DNA from: a virus
Taxonomy: Duplodnaviria; Heunggongvirae; Uroviricota; Caudoviricetes
IMG/VR virus record: IMGVR_UViG_2671180906_000008
DNA length: 4,318 nucleotides
Strand: one strand, 5' to 3'
Of the stretch, positions 1 to 4,318 are shown in pieces. Position 1 is the first letter of the stretch. Every line of letters begins with the position of its first letter. The notes beneath the pieces are model-generated. The model made no database searches and was not told the DNA's origin. It saw only the letters and a list, made by a program, of their open reading frames with translations. The translations under genes were made by a program, and so were the position numbers.

Positions 1-46
1 TGTTCTGAGGTGAGCATATCACCTCTGTTCAGGTGGCCAAATTCAG

Positions 47-69
47 TGTGCCACTTCACTATAGGGACC
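47..69 (+). promoter_or_regulatory. T7-group single-subunit RNA polymerase promoter-like sequence, predicted +1 at G64
   Basis: tgtgccacttCACTATAGGGAcc: positions 56-67 match the T7 promoter -8..+4 core TCACTATAGGGA 12/12; upstream -17..-9 differs from T7. Same orientation as all downstream genes. Only occurrence in the window. Confidence 0.4.
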
Positions 70-383: not shown

Positions 384-1130
384 ATGTCCCAACAAGAAAT
401 CAGCATCATTAACCTCGACCAGCTTGTGTCCATGACCTCAGTTGAAATTGCTGAGCTGACAGGAAAAGAACATAAACACGTTTTACGAGATATTCGTAAT
501 ATGGTCGAAGAGCTTAACGGGGCCAAAACTGAGCACTGCTCAACTTTGAGCAGCGAGCTTAACGGGTCCAAATTTGGGCTCGTTGGCGAGGAAGTATACA
601 AGGACGCGAAAGGTGAGAGCCGAACAATGTATCGTCTCGACCGTAAGCATACTTTCATTCTGGTCGCTGGCTATTCCGTTCACCTCCGCGCCAAGTGTTA
701 CGACCATATTCAGACGTTAGAGCGTCGAGTCCTTCAACTGGAAGACCAGAAGAAGCGAGCAGCCATTCAGTCCGCTAACCGCCGAGGCGTGACTTGGGGC
801 GACTACTGCAAAACCTATGGTCTGCCCGCTCAGAAGCTAATGACCGCACTTCTCCAGCATCGTGGCCTCTTTCGTAAGAACCCAATCAGTAACGAGTGGT
901 CTGTAAATCCGAAGTATTCCGACTGCTTTCGTATCATTAAGCCGTCAGACCAGAAGTTCTCAGCAGGTGGGTATAACTTCCGGTTCAACGCTAAGGGGCT
1001 GGAGGTCTTCGGTAAGCCTGAGATGGTTGACAAGATGCGAGGCATCCTTATTGCATTCACTGGCACCGACCAGCAGAAGCAAGAGCACCTCCTGAAGCTG
1101 GCACAATCCGGTAAGGTGGAGGGAATCTAA
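384..1130 (+). CDS. Rha-family phage regulatory protein (pRha/ORF6N-like N-terminal domain), 248 aa
   Basis: ATG 384 preceded by AAGGAG (369-374) at 9-nt spacing. N-terminal ...TSVEIAELTGKEHKHVLRDIRNM... then ...MYRLDRKHTFILVAGYSVHLRAKCYDHI... matches the Rha/antirepressor N-domain pattern as I recall it. Long uninterrupted ORF. Family call not searched. Confidence 0.65.
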   Translation: MSQQEISIINLDQLVSMTSVEIAELTGKEHKHVLRDIRNMVEELNGAKTEHCSTLSSELNGSKFGLVGEEVYKDAKGESRTMYRLDRKHTFILVAGYSVHLRAKCYDHIQTLERRVLQLEDQKKRAAIQSANRRGVTWGDYCKTYGLPAQKLMTALLQHRGLFRKNPISNEWSVNPKYSDCFRIIKPSDQKFSAGGYNFRFNAKGLEVFGKPEMVDKMRGILIAFTGTDQQKQEHLLKLAQSGKVEGI

Positions 1131-1131
1131 G

Positions 1132-1308
1132 ATGATGATTGACCCGCGCACACCTGAGGGGCGCATGACTCTCCGTTACCGTGGCTACCGGACTGAAGTC
1201 CTCCTCAGAGAGCTTGGTCTAGACCCGGAAGATGAGACCCGCCAGCACCAATCCCGAGACGAGCTAATAGCCCAACTGGTCGCTATGAAACTGCCGCTTA
1301 ACCGTTAG
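1132..1308 (+). CDS. Hypothetical small protein, 58 aa, translationally coupled to upstream gene; not in supplied ORF track
   Basis: ATG 1132 lies 1 nt after the TAA (1128-1130) of the upstream ORF. GGAGG at 1118-1122 gives 9-nt spacing. Reads MMIDPRTPEGRMTLRYRGYRTEVLLRELGLDPEDETRQHQSRDELIAQLVAMKLPLNR to TAG 1306-1308. Codon usage like neighbours. Confidence 0.5.
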   Translation: MMIDPRTPEGRMTLRYRGYRTEVLLRELGLDPEDETRQHQSRDELIAQLVAMKLPLNR

Positions 1309-1427: not shown

Positions 1428-1978
1428 ATGATGTTCAACAACAACNNNNNNNNNNNNNNNNNNNNNNNNNNNNNNNNNNNNNNNNNNNNNNNNNNNNNNN
1501 NNNNNNNNNNNNNNNNNNNNNNNNNNNNNNNNNNNNNNNNNNNNNNNNNNNNNNNNNNNNNNNNNNNTCCTATCCGTTGTCGCTCGCTATCAAGACCCTC
1601 ATTCCGGGCTACCTGTCAGGCTTACCGTCCACCAGCCGCGAGGCGATGGAGTTACTGGAAGCTCTGGCTGAAGCTGGCGTGACCATTGGTAACTTCTTCA
1701 GTAATGACCTGATGACCGCCTACCAACGCCGCCAGATGAACAAACGAGCTGAAGCTGAGCGTATCGCTAAAGAGCTAGCGTCTCAGAAAGAGCGTACCCG
1801 CGAAATGTTCATGACCGAAGACGAATGGCAAAAAGAGCTACAGCGCCGCGAACAGGTCAAAGCTGAACGCCGGACCTATGGTGAAAACCTCCGCAGCGCT
1901 ACTCATTCCGCTGGTCGCTCACGTGCCGCTATCGTCGCTGACCTTGAGTCAGGCGGTAACTGGATGGACAGCTTGTAA
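1428..1978 (+). CDS. Hypothetical protein with charged, coiled-coil-like C-terminal half; interrupted by assembly gap, reading frame across gap unknown
   Basis: GAGGAG (1414-1419) 8 nt before ATG 1428 (MMFNNN...). After the gap an open frame runs to TAA 1976-1978 (…AEAERIAKELASQKERTREMFMTEDEWQKELQRREQVKAERR…). The 1349 start in the ORF track has no ribosome-binding site and is probably an artefact of the gap. Confidence 0.5.
1446..1567. other. Assembly gap (122 N)
   Basis: Run of N characters. Length is not a multiple of 3, so it is probably a placeholder size. Confidence 0.99.
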
Positions 1979-2061: not shown

Positions 2062-3051
2062 ATGAATATGACTAAAAACGCTTTCCAGTTTGGCATTGAG
2101 CCAGTACGCATCACCGATACCGACAACATTCAGGTCAATGAAGGTCTGCCGACTAACGCCGACCCTCAGGTCTATGCCCTCCAGTTAGCTAAGACTGTTA
2201 AGGCTATGCTGAACGGTGTACTTAAAGACGCTCAAGATAACATCCCGTTCCCTGTAGAAGTCCTGCCGACCCGTAACAGCTTACCGACTCCAATCATTGC
2301 TCACACTCTGGCTGACCGCTCTGTGCTGGTCCCTGTCCGTGGTGGTAAGCGACCTGAAGTTGTGACCGCTCCGTCTGGCACTGAAATCACCGTTGAGCCG
2401 ATTGAACAGGCGATCCTCGTGTCTCACCAAACAAAGCTTTGGGACCAGAAGTCGACCACTGGTTTCACTCAGGGGACGCTCCAGCAGGACGCACTGAACA
2501 TCTGCGATAACGTGATTCGTACCATTAACTCTAAGATGGTTGACGTGCTGGAGTCCTCAAAGCTGCTGAAGACCGTAGAACTTCCGGCCCTGACTGGTAG
2601 CCTGACCGCTAAGGCTGACGCTATCATGGATGCCCTGTACGAGAACACGGAGTCTTCTTTCGGTTCTGAGGTTTCTGACTACGGCATTATCGCCCATGAG
2701 TCACACCTCAAGGCTCTCTCCCGTCTGGCTGCTAAGCAGGGCTTCGGTGGTGAAGACGCTATCGTCGATATGCTGGGGACTGACGTCGCCTATTACAACG
2801 GTGAAGACCGTGGCGTGTTCATGATGGCTAAGCGTTTTACGGCTCTGAGCTTCGGTTGCTTCCGTCACGATGGCGAGAGCATTACTGTGGTCCTTTCACG
2901 TGATGGAGACTCCCAGTCTCACGACCTTGAGATTCTCGGCAAGGTGTTTGTTGTAGCTGAAGCTGCTACGACCATCAAGATGGGTACTGGCTCGGCTACT
3001 GCTGTCCTGCCTGTAGTCAAACGCCTGAGCTTCACTAAAGAAGCTAACTAA
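2062..3051 (+). CDS. Hypothetical protein, 329 aa, likely highly expressed; possible virion structural protein by context only
   Basis: AAGGAGA (2046-2052) 10 nt before ATG 2062. Strong major-codon bias (cgt, ggt, gct, ctg, ccg, aac, ttc, tac). Hairpin plus T-tract terminator immediately downstream. No family recognised by eye. Confidence 0.8.
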   Translation: MNMTKNAFQFGIEPVRITDTDNIQVNEGLPTNADPQVYALQLAKTVKAMLNGVLKDAQDNIPFPVEVLPTRNSLPTPIIAHTLADRSVLVPVRGGKRPEVVTAPSGTEITVEPIEQAILVSHQTKLWDQKSTTGFTQGTLQQDALNICDNVIRTINSKMVDVLESSKLLKTVELPALTGSLTAKADAIMDALYENTESSFGSEVSDYGIIAHESHLKALSRLAAKQGFGGEDAIVDMLGTDVAYYNGEDRGVFMMAKRFTALSFGCFRHDGESITVVLSRDGDSQSHDLEILGKVFVVAEAATTIKMGTGSATAVLPVVKRLSFTKEAN

Positions 3052-3065
3052 CAATAACGACTATT

Positions 3066-3102
3066 GGTCAGACTTCCGAACTGGATGTCTGGCCTTTATT
3101 TT
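3066..3102 (+). terminator. Intrinsic (factor-independent) terminator downstream of the 329-aa ORF
   Basis: GGTCAGAC (3066-3073) pairs with GTCTGGCC (3087-3094) with one G.U pair; inner TCC/GGA pairs extend the stem; 5-nt loop gaact; followed by TTTATTTT (3095-3102). Starts 15 nt after the stop codon. Confidence 0.6.
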
Positions 3103-3146
3103 GTACTAGTAATCTAGTTTGTGAATACAGAAAGTAGGAGGGCCAA

Positions 3147-3221
3147 ATGGACCTACACAAAGTCTATCTCGTGGTCTTCCTGCTAAAGCTGGGACTGGTG
3201 GTCTGGCTATGGGCTATTAGA
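3147..3221 (+). CDS. Very short ORF (24 codons) behind a consensus ribosome-binding site; possibly a truncated gene start or leader peptide
   Basis: AGGAGG (3136-3141) 5 nt before ATG 3147. Reads MDLHKVYLVVFPAKAGTGGLAMGY then TAG 3219-3221. Too short to call a protein confidently. Confidence 0.2.
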
Positions 3222-3724
3222 CGATGAGTTTTGACTGAAAAATGTGAGACCTCATCTAATATAAAGAGCGAGCCAAAAGCCCCCATAGCCTGACCTGAGC
3301 CAGACCAAAAGGGCCGGGTAGTCAGACCGTGAGTTCTATTCCTTTAGAGGGAATATTACGTGCTTCAAGTCTTGACCTTCTATCTCTAAATGTGTGACTA
3401 TCACTACAACCAACTGGATTCACCTGTCTTTAAGAAACAATAGGTTAGCTGGTTGTCTTCGATTTGTCGTAGGCTCCCTTCGCCCGCTCCAATTTATCTT
3501 CACCTGATCAATCTGCCATTTTTGCTGTATCTGATTTTCTATATTATCTTAATTCAATCACTTCAGGCTTTTCGCAATCGCTGTAACACTTCCCCATTTT
3601 TTTGTAAATAAAAAGCGTTTACGCAATGCAATCCTTTTGTAACAACTCAGGTAAAATACCTTATTTTCAAGTTGTTGAATAAGTGGTTATCTACGCTTTT
3701 AACAAACGATTGATGGATTATTTT

Positions 3725-4276
3725 ATGAAAGGGAAATCTGCATTAACTCTTCTGCTCGCTGGTATATTTTCGTGCGGCACATGCCAGGCGACAGAGGCAG
3801 AAGTGACAAGCGAATCTGTATTTAACATTCTTAATTCCAGGGGGGCAGCAACAGATAAAAGTTATTTATCGTTAAATCCAGATAAGTATCCTAATTATCG
3901 TCTTCTGATTCACTCAGCCAAATTAAAAAATGAAATAAAGAGTCACTATACCAAAGACGAAACTCAAGGATTGCTAACATTAACAGAAAACACACGAAAG
4001 TTAACGTTGACGGAGAAACCCTGGGGAACGTTTATTCTTGCTTCTACTTTCGAAGATGACAAAACAGCGGCAGAAACCCACTATGATGCTGTCTGGCTGA
4101 GGGATAGTTTATGGGGCTATATGGCATTAGTATCAGACCAAGGAAATAGTGTAGCCGCAAAAAAGGTTCTGCTCACCCTGTGGGGTTATATGTCTACGCC
4201 CGACCAGATTAAGCGGATGCAGGACATCATTAGCAACCCAAAACGACTGGATGGAATTCTGATCCTACCCACGTAA
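3725..4276 (+). CDS. Secreted protein with N-terminal signal peptide and a GH15-like (glucoamylase/trehalase-type) WxRDS motif; ends at an in-frame TAA, possibly truncated or a pseudogene
   Basis: ATG 3725 gives MKGKSALTLLLAGIFSCGTCQA|TEAE, a classic n-h-c signal peptide. In-frame alternative starts at GTG 3683 and ATG 3713. AVWLRDSLWGYMAL at 4088-4129 resembles the GH15 WTRDS region. Visibly AT-richer with different codon usage than 384-3051. Frame stays open after the stop to the window end. Confidence 0.55.
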   Translation: MKGKSALTLLLAGIFSCGTCQATEAEVTSESVFNILNSRGAATDKSYLSLNPDKYPNYRLLIHSAKLKNEIKSHYTKDETQGLLTLTENTRKLTLTEKPWGTFILASTFEDDKTAAETHYDAVWLRDSLWGYMALVSDQGNSVAAKKVLLTLWGYMSTPDQIKRMQDIISNPKRLDGILILPT

Positions 4277-4318
4277 TATGGACACAGGCCTAAGCGAGGT
4301 TCTGGTTTTCAAATTGTT

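Follow-up and report, generated by a model that had tools for sequence, protein, structure and literature searches.

The gene-free, AT-rich stretch next to ygeQ in Escherichia and Shigella as the probable right attachment scar of a small island at the tRNA gene glyU

Gene content of the glyU locus

The window, which comprises the whole 4,318-nt stretch of DNA analysed here, represents Escherichia/Shigella chromosome and shares 100% identity with the genomes of E. coli ECMA0423 (CP178302.1) and S. flexneri SFBU1023 (CP182556.1). In annotated relatives the locus is ordered actS, the tRNA-Gly gene glyU, a genomic island, ygeQ and the ETT2 type III secretion genes. The island in turn consists of an integrase gene, a DUF4145 gene, a non-coding gap of ~900 bp, rha, a small ORF and two further ORFs of ~163 and 329 aa, in this order. 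The window opens inside the non-coding gap and closes inside an IS3 copy (Table 1); the integrase gene and attL are both located outside it, and no tRNA was called within it by ARAGORN. Where the two otherwise 100% identical genomes contain 63 nt, the window contains a run of 122 Ns (1446-1567), and either the length of the mask was not preserved or the source differs from these genomes at that place.

Table 1. Features of the window, with positions counted from its first nucleotide
Feature	Position	Strand	Remarks
Right end of an IS911 copy	1-58		IS of 1,250 bp with a 3-bp target duplication (CTA), inside the third phage-type promoter
Downstream half of a Kayfunavirus-type promoter	59-69	+	CTATAGGGACC; upstream specificity half displaced by IS911
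Rha/Ant-type regulator gene	384-1130	+	Pfam Phage_pRha, E 1.5e-18; PHROG 10324 anti-repressor, E 2.6e-62
58-aa ORF	1132-1308	+	No family match in Pfam or PHROGs; a 63-66-aa ORF at this position in relatives
~163-aa ORF	1428-1978	+	Directly upstream of the capsid-like gene; partly N-masked (1446-1567)
Gene for predicted HK97-fold capsid-like protein, 329 aa	2062-3051	+	AlphaFold pLDDT 82, pTM 0.76
Hairpin and T-run terminator	3066-3102	+	GGTCAGAC / loop / GTCTGGCC / TTTATTTT; read from the sequence, after the capsid-like gene
26-aa hydrophobic peptide ORF with Shine-Dalgarno	3147-3227	+	MDLHKVYLVVFLLKLGLVVWLWAIRR; in eight variant islands, including Rouxiella and ynfE-site islands
Right arm of the island (attP-derived arm of attR)	3228-3474		Missing from empty-site genomes
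Inverted repeat TATTCC-N7-GGAATA	3337-3355		Stem kept and loop variable in five variants
Two tandem ~12-nt units	3389-3414	+	AATGTGTGACTA / TCACTACAACCAAC; candidate arm-type integrase sites
attR core	3475-3491	+	17-nt exact copy of the 3' end of tRNA-Gly(CCC) glyU, TCCCTTCGCCCGCTCCA
Native spacer downstream of glyU	3492-3633		Directly after glyU in island-free genomes; also in strains without ETT2
Left edge of ETT2 and 5' region of ygeQ	3634-3724	+	Includes TAAAAT at 3652-3657; GC 0.286; homology with the ETT2-less strain 4/1-1 stops at 3633
5' part of ygeQ, truncated	3725-4259	+	Glycoside hydrolase family 15 protein with signal peptide (RefSeq annotation of matching loci)
End of the IS3 copy interrupting ygeQ	4260-4318		Annotated as IS3-like element IS3 family transposase; same site in H2 and P829

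When all island ORFs were scanned against Pfam, PHROGs and PADLOC, only the integrase, PD-T7-4 and the Rha/Ant-type regulator were recognised, and comparison of the island DNA with phage genomes returned a single 61-bp match, inside rha. The ~163-aa ORF, which matches no Pfam or PHROGs family, is the partner of the capsid-like gene in every relative, the distant ones included, and its position makes it a candidate scaffold protein. The 329-aa product is annotated as a "hypothetical protein" and was not recognised by sequence in Pfam, PHROGs, tblastn against phages or a profile search of the PDB. A structural model built from 14 close homologues reached a pLDDT of only 35 and became confident only after distant homologues from an exhaustive HMMER search had been added. 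Foldseek comparison of this model with the PDB yielded 218 matches at E<=1e-3, of which the 50 listed all belong to phage capsids or encapsulin shells of the HK97 fold, and the top match in BFVD is the capsid protein of the T7-like phage phiIBB-PF7A (E 3.6e-10). As judged from its predicted structure, the protein is an HK97-fold capsid-like protein. Its family is narrow, the first search yielding 32 clusters at E<=1e-3 and the exhaustive HMMER search ~30 distant full-length relatives. At the place of the terminator that follows the gene, the variant islands L012-L014 contain a different self-complementary stem, GGTCAGGACC-TTCG-GGTCCTGGCC. The 26-aa peptide ORF further downstream falls below a 60-codon cutoff, and its changes among variant islands are synonymous and conservative.

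Two or three plus-strand copies of ACTAAACTATCACTATAGGGA are localised in the non-coding gap of the island (5430-5490 and 6019-6048 in the relative L003; 59-69 in the window). The intact copies in relatives read GACTAAACTATCACTATAGGGACC and are identical to annotated promoters of phage CR44b. Their 18-mer core was found in 35 stretches of viral contigs of ~39-40 kb, often more than once per contig, and the one contig checked (L017) is 100% identical to Citrobacter phage CR44b (Kayfunavirus) and ~94-95% identical to other coliphages, such as Kayfunavirus CLBP1. The exact matches in CR44b are the annotated promoters preceding genes 6.5 and 10 (phi6.5 and phi10). Perfect promoters of the Kayfunavirus (K1F-like) type are present upstream of the Rha-capsid genes of the island. 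In distant islands, whose capsid proteins are 34-42% identical, the genes are again arranged as integrase, regulator, ~160-aa ORF and capsid gene, and the promoters in the same relative position are of other T7-supergroup flavours.

The third promoter is the one interrupted in the window. Positions 1-55 are multi-copy, occurring at up to 24 places per genome and also on plasmids, and the insert in SFBU1023 has the inverted ends TGAAGTGG...CCACTTCA and separates ...AACTATCACTA from CTATAGGG. The apparent CACTATAGGG at 57-66 is a hybrid of the IS end and its target, with the specificity half lost. The hybrid was considered as a second promoter specificity and rejected as an IS911 artefact, the 62 matches of the 16-mer CCACTTCACTATAGGG in viral contigs being scattered, single and at background level.

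The DUF4145 gene, which overlaps the integrase gene in relatives (L003 4777-5436, outside the window), matches the PD-T7-4 model over its full length (PADLOC E 1.3e-102), and the island is thus the natural carrier of that anti-T7 defence system. PD-T7-4, since renamed RAZR, is described as a HEPN RNase that aborts infection on assembling on the portal rings of T7, T3 and other phages (Nature 2026, PMC13017515), and in a 2022 screen it was found often to overlap an integrase gene (Vassallo et al., PMC9519451). Text searches of these two papers retrieved no passage describing a carrier island, a capsid-like gene or phage promoters. Unlike its relatives, the window's own lineage (L116) does not carry the gene, and the slot holds an unrelated 139-aa ORF in place of RAZR, which suggests that the position next to the integrase is a variable cargo slot.

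The attR core and the segments that adjoin it

The original prediction described 3222-3682 as an AT-rich stretch lacking ORFs of at least 60 codons. This holds, with the longest ORFs reaching 52, 40, 37 and 33 aa, none of them found to be conserved within the region, and the true gene-free interval extends from the stop of the 26-aa ORF to the ygeQ ATG at 3725 (3228-3724). At 40% GC, 460 nt devoid of a 60-codon ORF are nothing unusual. The reported shift in composition is likewise real, the GC content being 0.525 in the capsid-like gene, 0.437 in 3228-3474, 0.331 in 3492-3633, 0.286 in 3634-3724 and 0.419 in ygeQ.

The proposal that the stretch could be a junction between acquired and resident DNA can be specified to the base, at 3475-3491, with the amendment that the break lies inside the region and not at 3222 and that only 3492-3633 is resident. 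The only long direct repeat flanking the island consists of the last 17 nt of glyU and a copy 6,392 bp downstream that corresponds to this core; by calculation ~0.002 repeated 17-mers are expected by chance in 7.4 kb. Among 5,426 complete E. coli genomes searched with positions 3100-3760 as the query, 5,245 gave a match, and the left part of the query was covered in only 150. Nearly all the remaining matches (~5,100 genomes) begin at 3475 and overlap an annotated tRNA-Gly, as an empty site does. The comparison with genomes lacking the module that had been proposed as a check thus defines the insertion boundary: in ~97% of E. coli genomes all the sequence left of 3475 is missing and glyU leads straight into 3475. 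In an alignment of attB (strain a15), attL and attR, attR follows attB to the right of the core and attL follows it to the left, and the partners switch exactly at the core. This three-way switch and the empty sites together are characteristic of an element that has integrated site-specifically at the 3' end of a tRNA gene. Given the repeat, the empty sites, the boundaries and an arm that tracks the integrase module (see below), the gene-free stretch is very probably the attR scar of a ~6.4-kb island at glyU, followed by the old spacer and then by the edge of an older island. As an att site at a tRNA gene, the junction itself is ordinary.

To the right of the core, the ETT2-less strains (4/1-1 and eight others) match only 3475-3633 and then continue toward yqeG. 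As their homology ends after 3633, 3492-3633 represents the original spacer and ETT2 starts at ~3634. K-12-type genomes (e.g. ET12567) lack 77 bp of the spacer (3501-3577), a deletion flanked by TC microhomology, and this part of the spacer is therefore dispensable. ETT2 is reported to adjoin glyU and to have a GC content of 36.9% (PMC3977695), and its extension rightward from ~3634 explains the low GC of the right part of the stretch, which fits the reported value; ygeQ and the type III secretion genes follow to the right of the window, as in ETT2. ETT2 differs from the phage-like module to which the original prediction referred. Its left boundary, placed here at ~3633/3634, has no tRNA-end repeat. 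In genomes that lack the IS the match with the window extends to 4259, and in the window ygeQ is an IS3-truncated pseudogene.

The integrase gene, which in L003 starts 134 bp after glyU, codes for 543 aa (Pfam Phage_integrase, E 3e-19), and in SFBU1023, whose genome is 100% identical to the window, it is intact (536 aa). The ~6.4-kb island has very probably entered the 3' end of tRNA-Gly(CCC) glyU by site-specific recombination of the tyrosine-recombinase type. Since attP would hold a copy of the last 17 tRNA nucleotides, integration would rebuild an intact glyU at attL and leave a 17-nt fragment on the right, the core at 3475-3491, which together with the right arm would constitute attR. The island carries, in order, the integrase, the RAZR/PD-T7-4 slot, the phage-type promoters, Rha, the small ORF, the ~163-aa ORF, the HK97-fold capsid gene, the terminator and the 26-aa peptide. 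Beyond the core lie 142 bp of original glyU spacer and then the older, AT-rich ETT2 edge with ygeQ; attR adjoins only 142 bp of native DNA because the island was inserted between the tRNA gene and the older island. Recombination of both 17-nt cores by the integrase may excise the island again, in which case window 3440-3491 would be joined to TGACACTTCTTAAAGTC... at the attP junction and glyU to ATTTATCTTCACC... at the restored attB. The tandem 12-nt units and the palindrome of the right arm would serve as protein-binding sites for the recombination.

Neither an excised circle nor an empty site within one strain was observed. A 6,413-bp Logan contig (L011) with the order right arm-core-left arm was considered as an excised circle and rejected, as it ends in a ~130-bp flanking repeat of the Rouxiella chromosome. 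In Rouxiella (L010 10557-10690) the first ~113 bp of the left arm recur after attR and, with the tRNA end, form this ~130-bp flanking direct repeat, which is probably the remnant of an earlier tandem copy. The same island occupies tRNA-Gly(CCC) in that genus, the core being the genus's own variant.

Several further deviations were observed at the att sites. In SFBU1023 the attL-side glyU (L116 7045-7120) contains ~10 substitutions/indels and is not called as tRNA-Gly by ARAGORN, and the island arm beside it is 100% identical to those of relatives. The changes represent either an assembly error or a decayed tRNA gene. SFBU1023 being one of only two genomes with 100% identity to the window, the core pair may be damaged in the lineage of the window. 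In E. coli P829, CAAT is duplicated directly after the 17-nt core at attR (L004 8374-8395), and the right arm lacks 11 nt (ATTTGTCGTAG) beside the core. In a single genome a second integrase gene (650 aa, DUF6538) directly follows the island attR (L012 9502-11454), which indicates that a further element is stacked at the same tRNA gene.

The right arm and other readings of the gene-free stretch

Rather than a recombination scar, the stretch could be mainly promoter or regulatory DNA of ygeQ, in which the TTGTAA-like boxes would function as operators or as -35 elements and TAAAAT would be the -10 hexamer, a reading that appears doubtful. The segment 3634-3724 immediately precedes the ygeQ start codon and is also conserved in genomes that carry ETT2, and the TAAAAT noted at 3652-3657 is indeed there and plausible as a -10 hexamer. 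It has no -35 partner at a workable spacing, however, as TTGTAA at 3637-3642 is only 9 nt away and promoters are recognised by a spacing of 16-18 nt. The suggested sigma-70 prediction, run together with a terminator scan, left the plus strand of the region empty, with no plus-strand sigma-70 site in 2950-3800. Among the three boxes cited, TTGTAAAT (3602-3609) and TTGTAACA (3637-3644) are present as described, and no match exists at 3574-3581, the nearest being CTGTAACA at 3581-3588. Nor are the boxes repeated beyond expectation: TTGTAAMA, with one mismatch allowed, occurs 9 times in the window, where 6.7 +/- 2.7 occurrences are expected, and 9 or more were counted in 50 of 200 shuffles, so these short motifs are at chance level. 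Furthermore, at most 91 of the 461 nt of the region belong to the ygeQ side of the ETT2 boundary, and the gene that they would serve is cut by IS3 and a pseudogene in this lineage.

The attR reading accounts for the left half of the stretch as an arm of the integration module. Between L003 and L013 the right arm is 95% identical, similar to the left arm (98.5%) and the integrase gene (93%) and unlike the adjacent capsid-like gene (76%) and small-ORF segment (77%), which indicates that the right arm travels with the integration module. Blocks of the arm are kept as far as Rouxiella, and related capsid modules with a different integrase, which sit in ynfE, have an unrelated right arm. Two elements of the arm may be involved in recombination. 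The palindrome at 3337-3355 is a candidate protein-binding site, while the tandem ~12-nt units are found again, similarly oriented, in the part of the left arm next to int (TCACTGTAACCAAC ACTGTGACTAAC) and are conserved in all variants, making these short motifs (shuffle P ~0.025) candidate integrase arm sites. The near-repeats (GAGCCAAAAG) originally placed at ~3269-3315 are found slightly shifted, at 3270-3279 and 3297-3311, and have only the 7-mer CCAAAAG in common; chance alone should give ~2 repeated 7-mers in 247 nt, and the first copy is missing from the P829 and Rouxiella variants.

The 10 nt at 3395-3404 (ACTATCACTA) match -12 to -3 of the Kayfunavirus promoter consensus exactly and overlap the candidate arm-type repeat; they could be a decayed promoter, a polymerase-binding site or a coincidence. 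It is improbable that the right arm additionally carries a cis signal for infection by T7-family phages, either a polymerase site or a satellite replication or packaging signal. An estimated ~0.004 matches of 10 nt to the 18-nt promoter are expected in 247 nt, and a full phage-type promoter is localised downstream of the capsid gene in the distant relative L119. The higher conservation of the arm relative to the adjacent genes would fit such a signal, and in an island without a recognisable replication or packaging gene these functions would have to be cis-acting. Against this, the initiation half TATAGGG is missing at 3395-3404, the match is weaker in other variants (AACCATCACTG, AACCTACACCG), the same bases are accounted for by the arm-repeat motif common to the left arm, and no similarity to the genome ends of Kayfunavirus was detected.

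An unannotated small RNA or small protein is highly improbable: the minus strand of 3228-3474 has a folding z-score of -1.92 (7 of 200 shuffles fold as well) and a weak terminator-like site at 3282-3270, and a small conserved ORF does occur just left of the region (3147-3227), but a covariance-model search of the whole window returned no Rfam match at E<=1, plus-strand folding is ordinary relative to shuffles (z +0.82 and -0.47), RNAalifold of five variants gave no well-supported covarying helix except the 5-6-bp palindrome, and the internal ORFs (33-52 aa) cross either the recombination junction or the K-12 deletion, or else are disrupted by indels in variants.

Nature of the island and comparison with known systems

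With the stretch read as an attR scar, the question of what kind of element it terminates can be addressed from the gene content. Of the features by which phage satellites (P4-like, PICI, cfPICI, PLE and PICMI) are recognised, an integrase and att sites are present in the island, and no satellite core gene (primase/replicase, terminase small subunit or packaging redirection, Sid/Psu/Delta, AlpA) was found among its ORFs with Pfam, PHROGs and PADLOC; helper-dependent induction and transfer in phage particles would be suggested only indirectly, by the perfect Kayfunavirus promoters ahead of the Rha-capsid genes. The island fits no described satellite family. Literature searches for a satellite of T7-family phages or for a described island at glyU returned nothing relevant, and to our knowledge no satellite of T7-family phages has been described. 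On the evidence of its sequence, the island may be an undescribed satellite-like element of these phages.

A wider scheme can be put forward tentatively. The junction may terminate a member of a new family of islands in Enterobacterales, minimal in size (~5-6.5 kb), that encode a capsid protein and are wired to virulent phages of the T7 family. In such islands the phage RNA polymerase would fire perfect copies of its own late promoters (here Kayfunavirus phi6.5 and phi10), leading to production of Rha and of scaffold-like and HK97-fold capsid proteins, beside the portal-sensing abortive RNase RAZR. The products could form small capsids of the island's own and, once it is excised at the 17-nt cores, let it spread as a satellite, or they could poison assembly of the phage capsid; the right arm (3228-3474) could add cis signals. 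Should the promoters function as their sequence suggests, the island would be an element of the chromosome that responds directly to the RNA polymerase of a virulent phage and, if the scheme is true, either a new type of satellite of T7-family phages or a new way of interfering with phages by means of a capsid protein. With phage-polymerase promoters, a capsid gene of its own and a defence gene that senses the portal, the island is a good candidate for follow-up, and the exact att coordinates provide a basis for excision and transfer tests. For the locus itself, an unexplained AT-rich gap is now resolved into four precisely bounded segments, and glyU is seen to have been struck by incoming DNA at least twice, which will aid annotation of Shigella and E. 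coli genomes and of the ETT2 locus.

tRNA genes are the targets of satellite P4, which integrates at leuX, and of many genomic islands with tyrosine integrases. Like these elements, the island at glyU has the 3' end of the tRNA gene directly repeated on its two sides, a tRNA gene restored at the end nearest the integrase, and the integrase gene itself beside attL; its non-coding arms contain repeated motifs, and precise empty sites are found in other strains. Unlike them, it has a long integrase (533-543 aa) whose gene overlaps a defence gene, and no excisionase gene was recognised in it.

Capsid-forming PICIs (cfPICI) and minimal satellites such as PICMI are the closest systems for comparison at the level of gene content. 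The island resembles these in being small and in encoding an integrase, a phage-type regulator and an HK97-fold capsid protein of its own, and its variable defence slot is a feature common to P4-like and PICI satellites. In contrast to cfPICI and PICMI, the ~6.4-kb island is without a portal, protease, terminase small subunit, head-tail connector, primase or replicase gene. It further differs from them in its predicted expression signals, which are promoters for the single-subunit RNA polymerases of the T7 family and which point to virulent Autographiviridae as the partner phages.
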